DNA of 63,190 nt, the filler included, from Stramenopiles sp. TOSAG23-2 (Eukaryota): the NCBI GenBank assembly GCA_900128395.1. It is 8 parts of 8 records of this genome, joined end to end, with 100 filler letters (N's around TTAATTAATTAA, not from the genome) between each part and the next. Parts side by side here need not be neighbours in the genome. Positions count along the whole stretch, not along the records: positions 26,706 to 53,296 come from LT649432.1; 7 more parts are not named here. The stretch is one strand, 5' to 3'. The first letter of the stretch is position 1, and each line of letters begins with the position of its first letter. Made by a program: the position numbers and the translations under genes. Below, piece after piece: positions 26,710-50,177 of this stretch. The notes beneath the pieces are model-generated. The model ran no database searches. It was not told the DNA's origin and saw only the letters and a list, made by a program, of their open reading frames with translations.

Positions 26710-27063
26710 AACGCATCACGTATCATATTTAGATACATACAAATATGTTTGAATGATTGTTTTGTGTAACGTATGTATGATTTATTAAATGTGTACTCAC
26801 TTTTGACAAATACAATTAGTATATAAGTAGCATTATGATGTTAGGATCAGAATAGCATTGTAAATCATGTATATTGAGTTTGCTACTTTTAGGTTTATAA
26901 AAAGGTAAAGTATGCAATTCAAACATTACAATATTCCAAAATAGGTTTGTATGTATCTAAATATGATACGTGATGCGTTGTATTGATGTAAACATTGTTC
27001 CAAAATAGGTTTGTATGTATCTAAATATGATACGTGATGCGTTGTATTGATGTAAACATTGTT
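26710..27063. repeat. 34-bp inverted repeat plus 64-nt tandem duplication at contig start
   Basis: aacgcatcacgtatcatatttagatacatacaaa (26710-26743); its reverse complement occurs at 26946-26979 and 27010-27043. Confidence 0.8.
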
Positions 27064-33750: not shown

Positions 33751-34084
33751 TAATTAATGCATAACTTATTTTTTAATTTACTCATGATAATTCCTACTCT
33801 CCAGAAAGAATATATGATACAATAACTGAGACAATAATATCTATCTCACTAAACTGTTCCCATTATAATATGATATGATATCATATCATATCATTTTTAA
33901 TATATAATATACGAACGTATAATATTGACACACTCTGTGGATTTCAATGAACTCTATCGCAATGTTACGATTTATTGTCCATCTTTCAGTTTAGTGAGAT
34001 AGATTTGTCTCAGTTATTGTATTCTTTCTGGAGAGTAGGAATTATCATATGAGTAAATTAAAAAATAAGTTAATGCATTAATTA
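33751..34084. mobile_element. MITE-like foldback with about 100-bp imperfect inverted arms (dispersed repeat family A)
   Basis: Left arm 33751-33856 (taattaatgc...gataattcctactctccagaaagaata...cactaaactg) is the reverse complement of right arm 33987-34084, apart from small indels. Confidence 0.75.
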
Positions 34085-42290: not shown

Positions 42291-43157
42291 AAAAGGATTA
42301 TAAATCAGTAGAAAAATTGTAGTTGATTTTTCTAGGGAACCTTGACTGTAAAATATACAAAGCGGAAAATTAACGAAAGCAAACAAAGGCTTGTTGTACA
42401 TTGGTACCTATGATATGAATGAAAAAATGCTTGCATGAAAAAATGTAAACAAGAAAGAAAAATATTAATATTATATAAATGAAAAAAATTTGGGTTTACC
42501 TCATTAGGGAGATGTTGTACAATCATACTTTTATATAATATGTGTGTGTAGAAATGGAATTTAGTTTTATATATTTAATATCATTATATAATACCATATA
42601 TGGTATCATATTCATATGATATATATATAGCATGATGAGATAGATATTATTGCCTCGGTTATCATATATAATGATATGATATGATATGATATGTCATACA
42701 TCATTCTTTTGAAGAAGTATCATTATATTTATATTTTAATATATAAATAAGGATAACATATATCATAATTCCTACTCATGACAATTCCTACTACGAACTC
42801 GTATATATAATGCATATATATGCATATGACATATCATATGATATGAACGCATCGTAGGAATTATCATGTGTGTGAGTAAAGTGCTATCATAAAAATTGGC
42901 CATCAAAAATTAAATTATATAATAATGACCCGGTTTATCTGACCCGAAGCACCTAATGGACAAAAAAACATATTATATAGGTAAATATTTCTAGTATACA
43001 ACTACTCCATACTTAGACCAGAGATTTCAGGTTTGATAGTAAAATATGTGTAATTTGTACTCATTAGTATACTTAAATTATTAATCAACTGGAAGTCTCT
43101 CTCAAGAAAAACCGGGTCATATATGATATAAATAAAAAAATATAAAAATAATATAAT

Positions 43158-43293
43158 TTTTACTCAACGATAATTCCTACTCTCCAAAAGAATAAAAATG
43201 TAACTCAATAATCTGTCTGCTCACACTATGCATAGTGTTAGTGTGTCAATACTCTCCATATAGAAGAGAAATACCAATGGAGGTAAATAGATG
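43158..43293 (-). repeat. Repeat family A copy (diverged); further fragments at about 33167-33315 and 42636-42868
   Basis: gataattcctactctccaaaagaata and ataccaatggaggtaaatagat match the copies at 33781 and 52488-52640. Confidence 0.7.
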
Positions 43294-45202: not shown

Positions 45203-46915
45203 TTAGCTCGCCATGAAAAAAACACCGACTAAAAAAAATGTACCAAATATATCACCAAGCGCAGTTAACCACGGCGTTGCATAATTATCTGGATCTATTT
45301 CACAGCGAAACAATATACGAGTGATTTTTGTTATAAATAATAACACCAAAACAATTTGCAATGTACTTGCCAATATATATAAACCAATGATTAGCCAATT
45401 TATTTTAACATGGCCAAGATTCAAAAAATAAACAACCATTAAAAAAATACCTTGTAATGGCAAATTAGCAAACAGCAAGGATAGACAAATTTTTAACTCC
45501 TCTTCCGTTTTACCAGTATGCAGTGACGAACACAGACGACTTGCATATACAGCACCAAGGTTTCCACCGATGCCATTGATATATGGTATTAAAACCGCAA
45601 TGCCTTTATAACGCATTACATTTTGTTCTAATATTACACCGGCTATTTGGCTCAAGGCTAAGCTGGATACTAGTGGCAACCAGCCGGTTTTCAAAACAGG
45701 ACGACAAAGTTCTTCTCGTTTTGCAACATTCCAAAACAAAGGCAATAAAATCAAATGAACAAATATGATCAGTGGCGACCAGTAAATCCCTAAAATGTCA
45801 CTTTTATCTAGTGATAGATCATAAAAAAATGTTCCAAAAAGTGCTAAAAGTCCAGTAGTACATGCATCACCAAAGCTACTAACAATTGGCGTGACAATAT
45901 TATCAGGGTCAATATCATATGCCACAGAACAGGTAATTAAATAAGCAGTCAATGACCCTAAGACAAATGCAGCACTTGACATCGTTATTAAAATAGATGC
46001 CAACATGACAAGATTTGGTAAAAATAAAAAGACACCATTGGATATACTACTTATAATAATGGAACCAACGGCGGTTATCAAGGCACATATGATTGCTTGT
46101 ACTTGAACAAGTGCTAAACTTGAAATTATAATTTCACGCGTCCGTTGTTTATCATCCATGTAACCTGAATGTGCAGCTGTTGCAAGCCGCGATGCAAGCG
46201 TCATATCTAAACTTCCTTTCAAACCCAACAACATCGGTATGGCCATGAAATACGCCGTGTTTGACTCAAACACGGGCCAATGTTGCGTAATATCTAGAAC
46301 ATACCCAGATAAAAATAACCCGAACGCTGCTATAACTAAGGCAGGTAACACTTGAGAGCCATCTTTAATTAAATTAAACTTATTCACGTTACTTGGTATT
46401 TCCATGGATTGAAACACTGGAACACTTTTTTTCTTCCCGCGTCTGCCTTTTTTTCCATTTCTTTGACTCGACACTTTCTTGCTCATTTTTAACATACTCT
46501 GTGGACGCAAAGACCCATCAGATTCACCTGGTTTTTCCCACGGTGGTGGTAAATCCAATGCGTGTGTAAGACTTTCTTTATGGTGGTTATGAGCATGAGT
46601 ATTATTATTATTTCTATTTTCAATATTATCATTCGCAACTTGAGTCATCTCTACATCAACACTGACAGTTTCTGGACCTCTCCTTATTTTTATTTTTTTG
46701 AGATTATTGTTGCTTTCATCATTCCAAGCAAATTTAACTTCATGTTGAATTTGTTTTCCATCTGTTTTCTTATTTTTCAAATCTTCAGTTTTATTATCAT
46801 TTTCCTCTCCCGACTCATCGCCCATCTGGTCATCTTCATTATTATCATACTCAACATCATCCACTTTCCTATATGGACTTTGCACCGATCCGAACGATTT
46901 TAATATTTTGAACAT
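45203..46915 (-). CDS. SLC41/MgtE-type divalent cation transporter
   Basis: PMLLGLKGSLDMTLASRL, DPDNIVTPIVSSFGD, GIGGNLGAVYASR, DPDNYATPWLTALGD (two MgtE repeats). Confidence 0.92.
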   Translation of the reverse strand: MFKILKSFGSVQSPYRKVDDVEYDNNEDDQMGDESGEENDNKTEDLKNKKTDGKQIQHEVKFAWNDESNNNLKKIKIRRGPETVSVDVEMTQVANDNIENRNNNNTHAHNHHKESLTHALDLPPPWEKPGESDGSLRPQSMLKMSKKVSSQRNGKKGRRGKKKSVPVFQSMEIPSNVNKFNLIKDGSQVLPALVIAAFGLFLSGYVLDITQHWPVFESNTAYFMAIPMLLGLKGSLDMTLASRLATAAHSGYMDDKQRTREIIISSLALVQVQAIICALITAVGSIIISSISNGVFLFLPNLVMLASILITMSSAAFVLGSLTAYLITCSVAYDIDPDNIVTPIVSSFGDACTTGLLALFGTFFYDLSLDKSDILGIYWSPLIIFVHLILLPLFWNVAKREELCRPVLKTGWLPLVSSLALSQIAGVILEQNVMRYKGIAVLIPYINGIGGNLGAVYASRLCSSLHTGKTEEELKICLSLLFANLPLQGIFLMVVYFLNLGHVKINWLIIGLYILASTLQIVLVLLFITKITRILFRCEIDPDNYATPWLTALGDIFGTFFLVGVFFMAS

Positions 46916-47252
46916 ATTTGTATTGGACCTTGTATCGCATGGATTAATATGAGTAATAACAATTGAAATACTATTAATAAGTATATATATATCACATCAA
47001 CTATTAACTTTTTATTTATTTTTTAAATAATAATAATATTTTTTTTTTTATTTTAATAAAAAACTTTACCCCAGGTCCCAGGTAAACCTTTTTTTATATA
47101 TAGTACCAGGTACTACAGGTAATATAATAATAATAAGTGCATACCAGGCATACTAAAATACCAGCGCACCAGCCCGCCAGGTAAAATTTTTCAAAAAAAA
47201 AAGGTTTTTTTTAAGGTACTACGGTGGTGTGATGTTTTGAACCCTAGGGGCG

Positions 47253-47450
47253 TACTTGTTTGTAGTCTCCGTGGCGGCGTTTTCTGAAATCGCAATGGAA
47301 AACGCATCGTTAGCAGGTGTTTAGAAGGTAATCCGTTTTCCATCACGAAAGTCATTTCGGCGGCTGGACCACCAATATGACCCAGAATAGTCGATCCTTA
47401 AAATCGACGGCTAGCGATCCAAGAGAGATGTCGAAAGACTACAACAAGTA
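47253..47450 (+). ncRNA. Predicted multi-stem structured RNA or ssDNA (left end of YR island)
   Basis: Closing stem 47253-47268/47436-47450 (one bulge); stems 47277-47284/47298-47305 and 47306-47314/47410-47418 (one G.U); hairpins 47346-47359 and 47390-47408. Folded by eye; expression unknown. Confidence 0.5.
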
Positions 47451-47483
47451 TAGAAACTACTAGAATTTATTTTTTATTGTACA

Positions 47484-47634
47484 ACCATACCAAGAGACTA
47501 TGACCGTCATAGGGTCCCAGTGCTGTGTGTATGCTTACAGACAAATCTCATGCAAACCCACCACCATACCAAGAGACTATGACCGTCATAGGGTCCCGGT
47601 GCTGTGTGTATGGACTCCGACAAATCTCATGCAA
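47484..47634. repeat. Two 72-nt direct repeats (period 79) with internal palindrome CTATGAC-C-GTCATAG
   Basis: accataccaagagactatgaccgtcatagggtccc[a/g]gtgctgtgtgtatg...gacaaatctcatgcaa at 47484 and 47563. Confidence 0.92.
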
Positions 47635-47676
47635 TTTGAAAATAGCTTATAAAATTATTTTATAATTTTTATTTTA

Positions 47677-47910
47677 TTATTTACCCACCACACCTCGAGG
47701 GTTTTCCACTGTTTGCTTTGGCACCATACCGGGTTTGAGTCTTACAATCCACTCCATAACATTCACATTATCACGCTCAGCCAAAGCTGCCCCCTGTGTT
47801 GGATTCAAACCTTTTTTATTGGTTCTATTAATATCCGCTTGTGCACCGTGATTATAAAGATATTTCATAATATCCAAATAACCTCCCACCGCCGCGTTTT
47901 GTAAACATGT
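47677..47910 (-). pseudogene. 5'-truncated ankyrin-repeat fragment
   Basis: Open frame TCLQNAAVGGYLDIMKYLYNHGAQADINRTNKKGLNP... fits the ankyrin consensus; directly preceded by an in-frame TAA, with no ATG ahead of the repeat. Confidence 0.65.
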
Positions 47911-47940
47911 TTAGCATGTGAATAGTATTAAAATGTTAAG

Positions 47941-48082
47941 TGTAAAGCTTTTTAAAAAGATTATAAAAACATATAAACAAATTATATTTATACAATTGGA
48001 AATATCCCAGAAACCTTTACACCTTTACAACAATGCTGTCGCATGCTAATCGAGCTTTACATACCTTTACAAAACCTTTACA
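47941..48082. repeat. Cluster of A[C/G]CTTTACA 9-mers next to an AT-rich tract
   Basis: Copies at 48013, 48021, 48053, 48063 and 48074; inverted tgtaaagct at 47941. Confidence 0.75.
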
Positions 48083-48172
48083 CCCAAACCCGTCATAGGG
48101 ATCCTAAACCGCGGTTTGGAGTACATAAAAATGGTAATCTCTCCGAGTACATAGAACTCTCATTCCTTGTAC

Positions 48173-48973
48173 TCAATCCAAATATTGCGCAATATCGGTA
48201 CCATCACTAAAGATATAGGTGTTGGTCGTTGTGATCGAAACATGACCCAAACGATCCCTACACGCGGCGAGAGGCGCCCCTGCTGCAAGTAAATGCGAGC
48301 AATGAGCGTGTCGCATCCAATGGCACGATACTTGTGTGTACCCAACGCGATTACAGATTCGTTTCATCATTTTGTGGATCCCTGACTTGGATATGGGACC
48401 GCCAAACCGTCCTTTGAAAATAAACCCGTTTGGGATGGCATCCAATAGTGGTTTGATATATATCGATTTGGACTTGGATAACGGCACGGTTCGCGTTTTA
48501 TTACCTTTTCCCGTTACTGTAAAGTGAAAACAACCTTGTTTATCAACAATATCGCGTTTTTTTAGCAGACGAACCTCGTCTTTGCGGACCCCTAGATAAT
48601 ACAATAATGTAACAAGTACACGCTCGCTGTTTGTACTTGCAGCTCGTATCAATTCTTGAACACCTTCCCTATTCATTTCGCGTTTTACCTTAATTGGTGT
48701 TTTCTTGGGCACCTGTAATACTCTACCTACATTTTCTTGAATATACCCATTGTTAAACATGAATTTGAACAGTGATTTCACACACGCAATCCTCCTACGC
48801 GCGCCTGGAGCGTGTTTGGTATCCTTTTGGTAGGTTTTAAGCTGTTGAAGGGTCATCCCTCGTATATCGTTGACCCCCATATACTGCTGAAAGGAGCGGA
48901 TATCGCAACGATAGCAATACCTTGTCTCCGCGGAACCAAATTGGTTGATAAATTCGTTCAAAATGCTCTGCAT
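48173..48973 (-). CDS. XerC/D-like tyrosine recombinase/integrase (266 aa)
   Basis: Core-binding-like N-terminus (SAETRYCY..DI..F, VKSLFKFM) and complete catalytic set: GVRKDE (R), GKGNK (K), HWMRH (H-x-x-R), LGH (H), TTNTY (Y). Intronless. Confidence 0.93.
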   Translation of the reverse strand: MQSILNEFINQFGSAETRYCYRCDIRSFQQYMGVNDIRGMTLQQLKTYQKDTKHAPGARRRIACVKSLFKFMFNNGYIQENVGRVLQVPKKTPIKVKREMNREGVQELIRAASTNSERVLVTLLYYLGVRKDEVRLLKKRDIVDKQGCFHFTVTGKGNKTRTVPLSKSKSIYIKPLLDAIPNGFIFKGRFGGPISKSGIHKMMKRICNRVGYTQVSCHWMRHAHCSHLLAAGAPLAACRDRLGHVSITTTNTYIFSDGTDIAQYLD

Positions 48974-49148
48974 AAATCGTAAAAACTATGATTTCGCGTT
49001 CTTTGGGTTTTCTACAGCGTTTGACCAAGTTACAGCGTCCAAAGGCTTCTAGATAAAGAATATTGTTGTTTTCGTAAGTTTAAAAATGGACATCCACTTG
49101 TATATGTTAGCATATGTGTGTATATCTGCGTGATGGGAGCGTGGTGGA

Positions 49149-49359
49149 CCTATCAAAATACATTTAAGGGGTTTGACCCGTAACATTTTATTCCCAGGCG
49201 TGTGAGCATCCTAAACGGTTTGGGGTGCTGTGACCGTGCTAGAGATCCGCTACTCACACTGTCACGATCCTTTAGTTTATTTGATAGGCGAGGTTTTCAC
49301 ACTTGCACGTCTCATGTGCCAGTGTGTGTAAAATGGCCGGCCCATTTCTACTTATAGAA
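49149..49359 (+). ncRNA. Predicted nested rod-like structured RNA or ssDNA plus terminal hairpins (right end of YR island)
   Basis: Nested stems 49149-49160/49278-49288, 49165-49172/49267-49274 (two G.U), 49174-49177/49261-49264, 49200-49206/49253-49259; inner hairpin catcctaaa-cgg-tttggggtg; hairpins at 49298-49326 and 49331-49347. Confidence 0.5.
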
Positions 49360-49766
49360 CTTACAGTGTAGACAAAGTACAAGATTGTAGCTAACTGGAT
49401 GTATTATACTTAGATCTACTGTATGCTGTATGTATATCGGCACCTGTATATAGGACAGACAGTACAGACAGAGTATACGTATACTTTATGCCATATATAT
49501 TTTATAATATGTGGACATAGAGAGATACTATATATATATATATAATTGAAATCATGTCATAGATGTAATAAATGCATAAATGATAAGCCTTTTTACAAGG
49601 TAATAAAAACGATTTGGTTAATCAATTATAATAAATAACAAACATTCAATGCACCGTTCAACAACATATATCACTAAAACTGCTTTAGAACACCATATAT
49701 TTTGTATGATACGATAAAATGAAATTCATAAATGTATGGGCAATATTATTAATATCAATAGCAATA

Positions 49767-50177
49767 TCAGTCAATGCTGATATAACAAAATTTGTCGCGC
49801 CTTGTAATGCTTTCTTCGGCAGACAATTTTGATAAATGATGTAAATGCCGACGATGTCGATGAAGGTTTTGTCTTTTCTTTCTTTTCATTTCTTTCCTCC
49901 AGAAGTAATAATCACTATCCTTGTTTTGATGATGGTGATCATGCAATTCATATGTATCGGAAATTTCTGAATCGTCATCACTATCATCTTCAACAATATT
50001 ATGCAGAGATGATGTCTTTCTTACAATTGCTATTGCTCTGAGTAAATATTCTGTACAACTAGTTGGAAAAGAATGATGATATTCTGGAATAAAATTAGGT
50101 AGAGGTGCTGGTGATAATTCTAATGATTCAAACAAAATATTTGATACTAAAGAGAATGTTTCCTTTATGAATAGCAA
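49767..50177 (-). CDS. Hypothetical small protein or gene fragment
   Basis: 136-codon frame with host-like low-complexity runs, but no ATG near its 5' end and no recognisable domain. Confidence 0.25.
   Translation of the reverse strand: MLFIKETFSLVSNILFESLELSPAPLPNFIPEYHHSFPTSCTEYLLRAIAIVRKTSSLHNIVEDDSDDDSEISDTYELHDHHHQNKDSDYYFWRKEMKRKKRQNLHRHRRHLHHLSKLSAEESITRRDKFCYISID

Follow-up and report, generated by a model that had tools for sequence, protein, structure and literature searches.

Does the segment at positions 47253-47450 of a 63,190-nucleotide stretch of DNA from Stramenopiles sp. TOSAG23-2 (GenBank assembly GCA_900128395.1; the entire stretch, filler included, is called the window below) encode a functional structured RNA, and if so, on which strand and of what kind? 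An earlier note, made from the sequence alone, had described a multi-branched fold at this locus and read it as a functional RNA on the strand opposite a neighbouring recombinase gene. Computational analysis indicated that a functional structured RNA is plausible on the predicted folding of the minus strand, which is the strand of the recombinase; the strand, the conformational switch and the loop matches proposed in the earlier note were not upheld, and their correction and removal is the main result of this work. As to the kind of RNA, the preferred reading, held with a probability of roughly 0.4, is a stand-alone Pol III-type non-coding RNA of about 200-250 nt, transcribed from the minus strand and acting as a protein-binding scaffold.

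Genomic setting and anatomy of the fold

The window is eukaryotic, with profile matches to ATG8, RPN7, an MgtE/SLC41-type transporter and a DUF3752 protein around the fold. Its GC content is 32%, while that of the fold is 45.5%, that of the repeats 48.7%, that of the recombinase 43.6% and that of the host genes 33-36%; GC at third codon positions was 44% in the GC-rich island and 27-29% in host genes. The GC-richer island (42-49%) runs from 47215 to about 49400 and contains, from left to right, the fold, two repeats with a 79-bp period, an ankyrin fragment and a tyrosine recombinase (Table 1). The fold had been described as a left end and is at most a putative one, as the ankyrin fragment (35 of 36 residues, or 97%, identical to EukProt P0249) and both repeats intervene before the recombinase. 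Parts of the window were found in marine sequencing runs, 20 of the 21 listed runs matching parts of a 2.8-kb stretch; the matches are to assembled contigs, in which strand and ends are invisible, and do not count as evidence here. Two of the 20 runs may be the source of the sequence, and the other 18, two of which are RNA runs, have shares of 0.05-0.18.

Two further features of the surroundings were recorded. A cluster of CCAGG/CAGGTA motifs at 47068-47185, upstream of the MgtE gene, contains 4 of the 18 plus-strand CAGGTA motifs of the window, one cluster motif forming a 9-bp palindrome that is perfect around a 1-bp centre; the cluster may represent subterminal repeats or a series of binding sites for a protein. 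A 136-codon frame at 49767-50177 on the minus strand, which has acidic and basic tracts and is without a Pfam match, is possibly an exon of an unannotated gene.

Table 1. Positions of the features at the locus, counted along the window
Feature	Position	Strand	Basis
Whole predicted RNA: P1, 27-nt single strand, P2, Y-shaped P3/P4/P5 domain, 13-nt single strand	47253-47450	-	z -6.28
P1, 5' strand; 15-bp closing stem, strand-symmetric, TA at both ends	47436-47450	-	predicted fold
P1, 3' strand, with one-base bulge	47253-47268	-	predicted fold
P2 hairpin, six Watson-Crick pairs and one U.G	47390-47408	-	pair probability 0.91-0.95
Y-shaped domain, closed by 5-bp P3 (47383-47387/47282-47286)	47282-47387	-	z -5.74; local scan z -5.7
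P4 hairpin, 13-14 bp, two internal G.U, one A.A mismatch	47350-47382	-	core 0.94-1.0, end pairs 0.71 and 0.87
P5 hairpin, 15+3 bp, two internal G.U	47290-47348	-	pair probabilities 0.86-1.0
P5 loop, 21 nt, two imperfect 10-11-nt copies	47309-47329	-	read off sequence
A-box-like motif, weak (consensus from general knowledge)	47361-47371	-	motif match
B-box-like motif, 10 nt 3' of fold (consensus from general knowledge)	47234-47242	-	1 of 6 matches in window
Ten-T run (T10), candidate Pol III terminator	47193-47202	-	sequence
79-bp-period repeat, copy 1, imperfect palindrome	47481-47555		91% identity to copy 2 over 75 nt
79-bp-period repeat, copy 2, 12-bp arms, 7-bp spacer, 8/12 complementary	47560-47634		sequence
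Ankyrin-repeat gene fragment (captured or decayed)	47692-47910	-	Pfam Ank_5 E 4.9e-4, below cut-off
Left half of repeat core, then direct-repeat copy 1	48090-48119	+	sequence comparison
Intact 266-aa XerC/D-like tyrosine recombinase	48173-48973	-	PF00589 E 2.6e-26
Direct-repeat copy 2, then right half of repeat core	49208-49232	+	sequence comparison
MgtE/SLC41-type cation transporter gene, host	45203-46915	-	PF01769 E 3.8e-39

The 15-bp closing stem with one bulge was found as the earlier note had drawn it and is purely Watson-Crick (P1 in Table 1). On the minus strand, P3 is predicted to open a three-way junction with P4 and P5. The motifs on which the earlier argument had been built, atggaaaacg (47295-47304), cgttttccat (47334-47343), gtcat (47351-47355) and tatgacc (47376-47382), are all present at those positions.

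Strength and strand of the fold

The folding energy of the whole region was better than that of every one of 200 shuffles on either strand, with a z-score of -6.28 on the minus strand and -3.15 on the plus. The plus-strand value is attributable to the closing stem, since its interior alone lies near the shuffles: over the inner 167 nt, 30 of 200 shuffles folded as well on the plus strand (z -1.13) and 4 of 200 on the minus (z -2.94). A 108-nt core gave z -5.74 on the minus strand (0/200 shuffles) and -1.98 on the plus. When the closing stem was held fixed, the minus strand was matched by 0 of 300 shuffles and the plus strand by 57 of 300; the difference of -7.9 kcal/mol between the strands was moderately rare, being reached by 8 of 300.

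The asymmetry involves G.U pairs, which make up 10 of 64 pairs on the minus strand and 5 of 64 on the plus. With G.U disallowed, both strands folded at -51 kcal/mol, and the gain on admitting it was 18.5 kcal/mol (minus) and 10.3 kcal/mol (plus). On the minus strand, P4 and P5 are lengthened by four internal G.U pairs and are free of internal A.C mismatches, and on the plus strand the same four pairs become A.C mismatches. The minus strand contains 43 G and 47 C, and the gain is not due to richness in G. The stem with a G.U pair that had been cited for the plus strand does form there (probability about 0.9), although the minus strand is the richer of the two in such pairs. Ensemble diversity was 21 on the minus strand and 35 on the plus, P1-P5 were the same at 15, 25 and 37 C, and the minus-strand helix probabilities of 0.86-1.0 persisted in a 590-nt context. 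With DNA parameters the minus strand retained the same helices (-35.2 vs -30.7 kcal/mol), and folding therefore does not separate RNA from single-stranded DNA. Taken on these models, a structured RNA is favoured on the minus strand, that of the recombinase, over the plus.

The switch fared no better than the strand. The segment atggaaaacg had been said to pair either with 47277-47284 or with cgttttccat; 47277-47284 could pair with it in a slightly shifted register (partner 47298-47305), and the probability of the rival helix was about 0.06 on the plus strand and 0.0 on the minus, at a cost of 2.2 and 6.2 kcal/mol respectively. Of 2000 conditional shuffles given the long helix, 17.7% produced a competing 7-mer. 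A two-state switch RNA from the plus strand, antisense to the recombinase, could still draw on the z-score of -3.15, the stable G.U stem, the small energy gap of 2.2 kcal/mol to the rival fold, a T6 run of its own at 47470-47475 (20 nt past the fold) and two C-GAAA-G motifs on that strand; with an interior matched by 30 of 200 shuffles (57 of 300 with the stem fixed) and a rival helix at 6%, of a kind expected by chance in 18% of shuffles, it is considered highly improbable. The gtcat/atgac segments, read earlier as loop motifs, pair at the base of minus-strand P4, with probabilities of 0.94-1.0.

These values have to be read against the background of the window, in which 19 non-overlapping local folds reached z -5.0 or lower, the present fold ranking sixth, and in which 13 inverted repeats of at least 15 bp were counted, compared to 0-3 per window in five block-shuffled windows. 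Several of the other strong local folds are MITE-like inverted repeats. The frequency of strong folds, borders that were set by the closing stem, the lack of a homologue or Rfam match and a mosaic neighbourhood that includes a gene fragment would all suit a chance fold without function in a GC-rich, decayed mosaic of mobile DNA. Such an origin is judged unlikely, given five helices at 0.86-1.0 on one strand, the 0 of 300 shuffles with P1 fixed, and a B-box-like motif with T10 directly downstream. A 68-codon frame overlies the fold; a protein search with it returned one candidate and none at E 10 or lower, an exact look-up was negative, and as the frame is without a homologue there is no coding signal over the fold.

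The fold might also be a small non-autonomous DNA transposon (MITE), with terminal inverted repeats of 13-15 bp and a duplicated TA target; its inner fold would then be either incidental or left over, possibly from a scaffold of the omega-RNA type. P1 is compatible with this in being Watson-Crick and strand-symmetric and in having TA at both ends of each arm, though TA is its own complement. Other MITE-like inverted repeats are present in the window. Fanzor 'ghost' loci, as described in the available portion of PMC10432273, are inverted-repeat elements carrying only an RNA scaffold, and the fold is like Fanzor omega-RNAs and ghosts in that a structured RNA lies at an end bounded by inverted repeats and shares its strand with a mobility gene next to it (PMC10432273; PMC3627910, both in excerpt). 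It differs from the ghosts, which in the same portion of PMC10432273 are multi-copy, about 550 nt long, and have 30-nt repeats and a 75-nt scaffold, and no Fanzor gene was seen here. Against a MITE, there was no second copy of the fold in the 63-kb window, the interior alone beats chance on one strand only, six-frame translations were without a Fanzor or TnpB frame, and CpG observed/expected was 1.47 in the fold interior and 0.45 in the adjacent repeats (small counts). The MITE reading is accordingly rated as improbable.

Other inverted-repeat structures were noted in passing. An AT-rich MITE-like family with long terminal inverted repeats (33780-34070, 42760-42885 and 43170-43190; z -11.7), whose end sequence is common to the three places, is unrelated to the fold; long inverted repeats at 26710-26979 and 42925-43120 (34 bp and 15 bp) are probably other small mobile elements.

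Candidate transcription signals and comparison with RNA families

The preferred reading of a Pol III-type RNA takes its signals from the minus strand, on which T10 begins 31 bases after the B-box-like motif. Among the six B-box matches in the window, two have T6 or more within 80 nt, and in one case an A-box match upstream accompanies the T6. Only 0.09% of window positions have the start of a B box with T6 after it in the next 60 nt downstream, the test having been picked post hoc. The A-box match sits in P4, 80 nt into the fold and at a distance of 129 nt from the B box. The combination is not distinctive, since another of the window's B-box matches likewise has an A-box match 129 nt upstream. 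Many motif types were screened, so that one good match is expected, and two T4 runs lie within the minus-strand RNA. In the available text of PMC8362101, type 2 (A/B-box) promoters drive tRNA, VA and SINE genes, T runs terminate transcription, and the B box of yeast U6 is functional in either orientation; because of this freedom of orientation in yeast U6, and because the plus strand has a T6 run of its own, the motifs do not fix the strand.

Under the Pol III reading, a stand-alone gene for a minus-strand RNA of about 200-250 nt would be transcribed by Pol III, with TFIIIC binding the B-box-like motif just 3' of the fold, a start at or inside the AT-rich linker near 47455-47475 and a stop within the T10 run. 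The RNA would adopt one dominant shape, its ends clamped by P1, and P2, the Y-shaped P3/P4/P5 domain and the 21-nt twin-repeat loop may together form a scaffold for protein. It would act in the manner of small viral and mobile-element RNAs made by Pol III (VA, EBER, SINE) or of a host RNP RNA, rather than as a switch or guide.

VA and EBER RNAs have a closing stem with a branched interior, a shape like that of the minus-strand fold. The size class, B box and T run of the fold are likewise those of small Pol III RNAs with type 2 or hybrid promoters (VA1/VA2, EBER, SINE, 7SL, vault), as listed in the part of PMC8362101 available; in contrast to the RNAs covered in that part, the fold is without a sequence or Rfam match, its B box lies 3' of the closing stem, and its A box is weak and 129 nt away. 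No protist RNA with a downstream B box was found in a literature search.

A regulatory role in cis was considered because of the neighbouring transporter. The MgtE/SLC41 gene could have a long 5' leader that is spliced and contains the fold. In this model a pyrimidine tract and a CTAAC resembling a branch point (47312-47316) would be hidden in P5, P3 would overlap an acceptor at 47284, and the rival helix would expose them, perhaps in response to Mg2+. The fold lies on the same strand as the transporter, 338 nt upstream of its start; the sequence contains CTAAC, TTTCAG as acceptor and, in repeat 1, GTAAGC as donor, CTAAC precedes the acceptor in two introns of the window, and bacterial mgtE is under the control of the M-box riboswitch. 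Since Rfam gave no match to the M-box, forcing the alternative fold on the minus strand takes 6.2 kcal/mol, CTAAC occurs 66 times in the window, and T10 and several upstream ATGs lie between the fold and the gene, a leader structure is thought very unlikely.

Screening of the window against Rfam 15 (4227 covariance models) returned no match at gathering threshold; the best E-values, 0.053 in the repeat and 1.5 in the fold, were all far below gathering. An 18-mer of the fold had 0 matches among viral contigs, where a two-arm pattern was found at 3 loci and a repeat 17-mer at 1, and a 25-mer of the fold had 0 matches in GTDB genomes. The fold was likewise unmatched in phages and plasmids and in a BLAST search against 88 loci, in which the repeat gave only 17-nt matches. 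These collections are mostly prokaryotic or viral, and the absence of fold homologues from them says little.

Individual families were examined in turn. Telomerase RNAs of Diaphoretickes, for which a Blastocystis candidate has been reported, are Pol III-type and pair their extreme 5' and 3' ends (PMC8287931, in the portion available); the fold is similar in its paired ends and differs from the RNAs described there in missing a template and pseudoknot. No minimal template for five common telomere repeats lies inside the fold on either strand, the only TTAGGG-type 7-mer (at 47240, plus) being outside P1, with the proviso that five motifs were tried and the organism's own repeat may differ; the longest pairing of unpaired bases that could make a pseudoknot was 5 bp (minus strand). 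The plus strand carries GAAAGUC after a long helix, like the 5' strand of helix P4 in RNase MRP/P RNA as presented in the available part of PMC1796607, with no 3' partner and no Rfam match. No 3' partner for that helix was found within two deviations of consensus, the best candidates having 3 deviations and 2 broken pairs, 5 and 1, or 7 deviations.

Using motifs from general knowledge, no SRP54-binding motif of SRP RNA helix 8 was seen on either strand, the CUGAnGA core of the hammerhead ribozyme was without a match in 47050-47640, and a CTAG beside the fold lacked the following T of a Helitron end. Neither an Sm site nor a C box was present in the fold, with one CTGA on the plus strand, which speaks against a spliceosomal snRNA or box C/D snoRNA in contiguous form, again on motifs from general knowledge. 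ARAGORN predicted 0 tRNA or tmRNA genes in the window. Resemblances to U1, U3 and U11 fragments, the yeast RNase P P3 loop, retron and HDV folds, drawn by eye from general knowledge, were short, on mixed strands and without Rfam support. A sigma-70 scan was at chance and is not applicable to a eukaryote. By this analysis the RNA would be a member of no tested family and would most resemble a Pol III RNA of the VA/EBER/SINE type. On the strength of a single sequence with a well-defined branched shape, 47253-47450 may be regarded as a credible orphan RNA candidate.

The recombinase, its repeats and the meaning of the locus

The recombinase has the catalytic residues R130, K156, H218, R221, H244 and Y253, invariant in a 14-row alignment. 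It scored below all Xer cut-offs (120 vs 335 and 115 vs 330 bits for NCBIfam XerC/XerD equivalogs) and far below the integron-integrase cut-off (58 vs 265 bits). Relatives with 87% and 61% identity were found in ENA and EukProt, within a wider set of 258-272-aa relatives from ENA, JGI, Logan and EukProt that includes many near-identical variants; with these relatives the recombinase formed a compact Xer-like clade of 16 of 48 rows with an SH-aLRT support of 100, in a quick tree in which one of the 16 had previously been labelled 'other'. The gene model of EukProt P0029 fuses a relative of the recombinase to a different transporter, which suggests that relatives occupy other loci. Loci of close relatives were found in 0 of 6 and 0 of 5 viral stretches and 0 of 172 in GTDB; metagenome loci of relatives numbered 4 of 417, all 26-30% identical, and a broad recombinase alignment yielded 80 phage-type loci at 27-34% identity.

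The lone tyrosine recombinase gene between short direct repeats, at different loci, is reminiscent of Cryptons (PMC3212892) and of bacterial XerC/XerD. Compared to what the available portion of PMC3212892 describes, the recombinase here is compact (266 aa), Xer-like and without the C-terminal domains of CryptonF/S, and the direct repeats are of 16-19 bp, as against 4-6 bp in Cryptons, for which that portion does not mention a structured RNA.

The direct repeat of 16-19 bp flanks the recombinase at 48101 and 49208, and 21 of 1000 shuffles were as good. When the cassette was removed in silico, the modelled empty site scored higher against the repeat than all of 4759 random joins under a long-gap scoring picked post hoc, and was reached by 17 of 4752 under standard scoring; the cassette thus looks as if it sat inside a third, split copy of the repeat core. 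In the read-through homologue P0027, the DNA 3' of the recombinase is conserved to about 48081 (50% over 40 codons), so the left core half may be inside the element. From the sequence arrangement the repeats may be part of the recombinase system, as sites that it targets or binds.

Repeat-type palindromes are frequent (16 in 2.65 kb, 233 in the window) and alone are not distinctive. Each 79-bp repeat forms a G.U-rich hairpin on the minus strand, one difference between the copies turning U.G into C-G, and single copies folded no better than shuffles (z -0.3 and -0.8). Four copies of CCTTTACA lie in iteron-like fashion at 48014-48082, just 3' of the recombinase, and 47896-48076 folds at z -5.7 on the plus strand. 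Imperfect palindromes with 10/12 complementary arms are found on both sides of the recombinase (49297-49327 and 48145-48174), and a perfect 14-bp palindrome at 49472-49485; all three are candidate alternative binding sites.

It appears doubtful that the fold serves the recombinase element as a functional component, as an RNA or folded single-stranded end that helps to choose or regulate recombination sites, although the fold has the recombinase strand and a common GC-rich island in its favour, as well as repeats that start 30 nt from the fold and whose core is split around the recombinase (the post hoc comparison above). Five 7-mers are common to the fold and the 79-bp repeat where 1.5 are expected, a marginal excess (49/1000 shuffles). 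The match to the repeat palindrome reported in the earlier note was, in contrast, at or near chance, a best local score of 16 being reached by 400 of 1000 shuffles, and a part in recognising sites finds no support. The direct repeats enclose no more than 48101-49223, at a distance of about 650 nt from the fold; no RNA-guided tyrosine recombinase was found in a literature search; and the integron-integrase score is far too low. Non-coding RNA genes are GC-rich in AT-rich genomes in any case, and the GC content of the fold counts in favour of the preferred Pol III-type gene also. The fold is tied to the recombinase by nearness, strand and GC content only, and the odds are judged about even between a proposed RNA gene that came in together with the recombinase island and one that is a neighbouring gene of the host.

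It is a long shot that a compact Xer-like recombinase clade of marine protists carries its own Pol III RNA to steer the recombinase. In that event the steering could fall to the single-stranded segment UCUCUUGG and the 5' strand of P4, which between them are complementary to the 79-bp repeat in three places, and the twin-repeat loop of P5 could contact a protein or the donor; if true, it would amount to a eukaryotic tyrosine recombinase assisted by RNA. If the fold is transcribed, it would constitute an RNA of no catalogued family from an uncultured marine protist. Should that RNA travel with the Xer-like clade, it would join a eukaryotic tyrosine-recombinase element to a structured RNA, a pairing not found in the literature search, and would make RNA help in tyrosine recombination directly testable.
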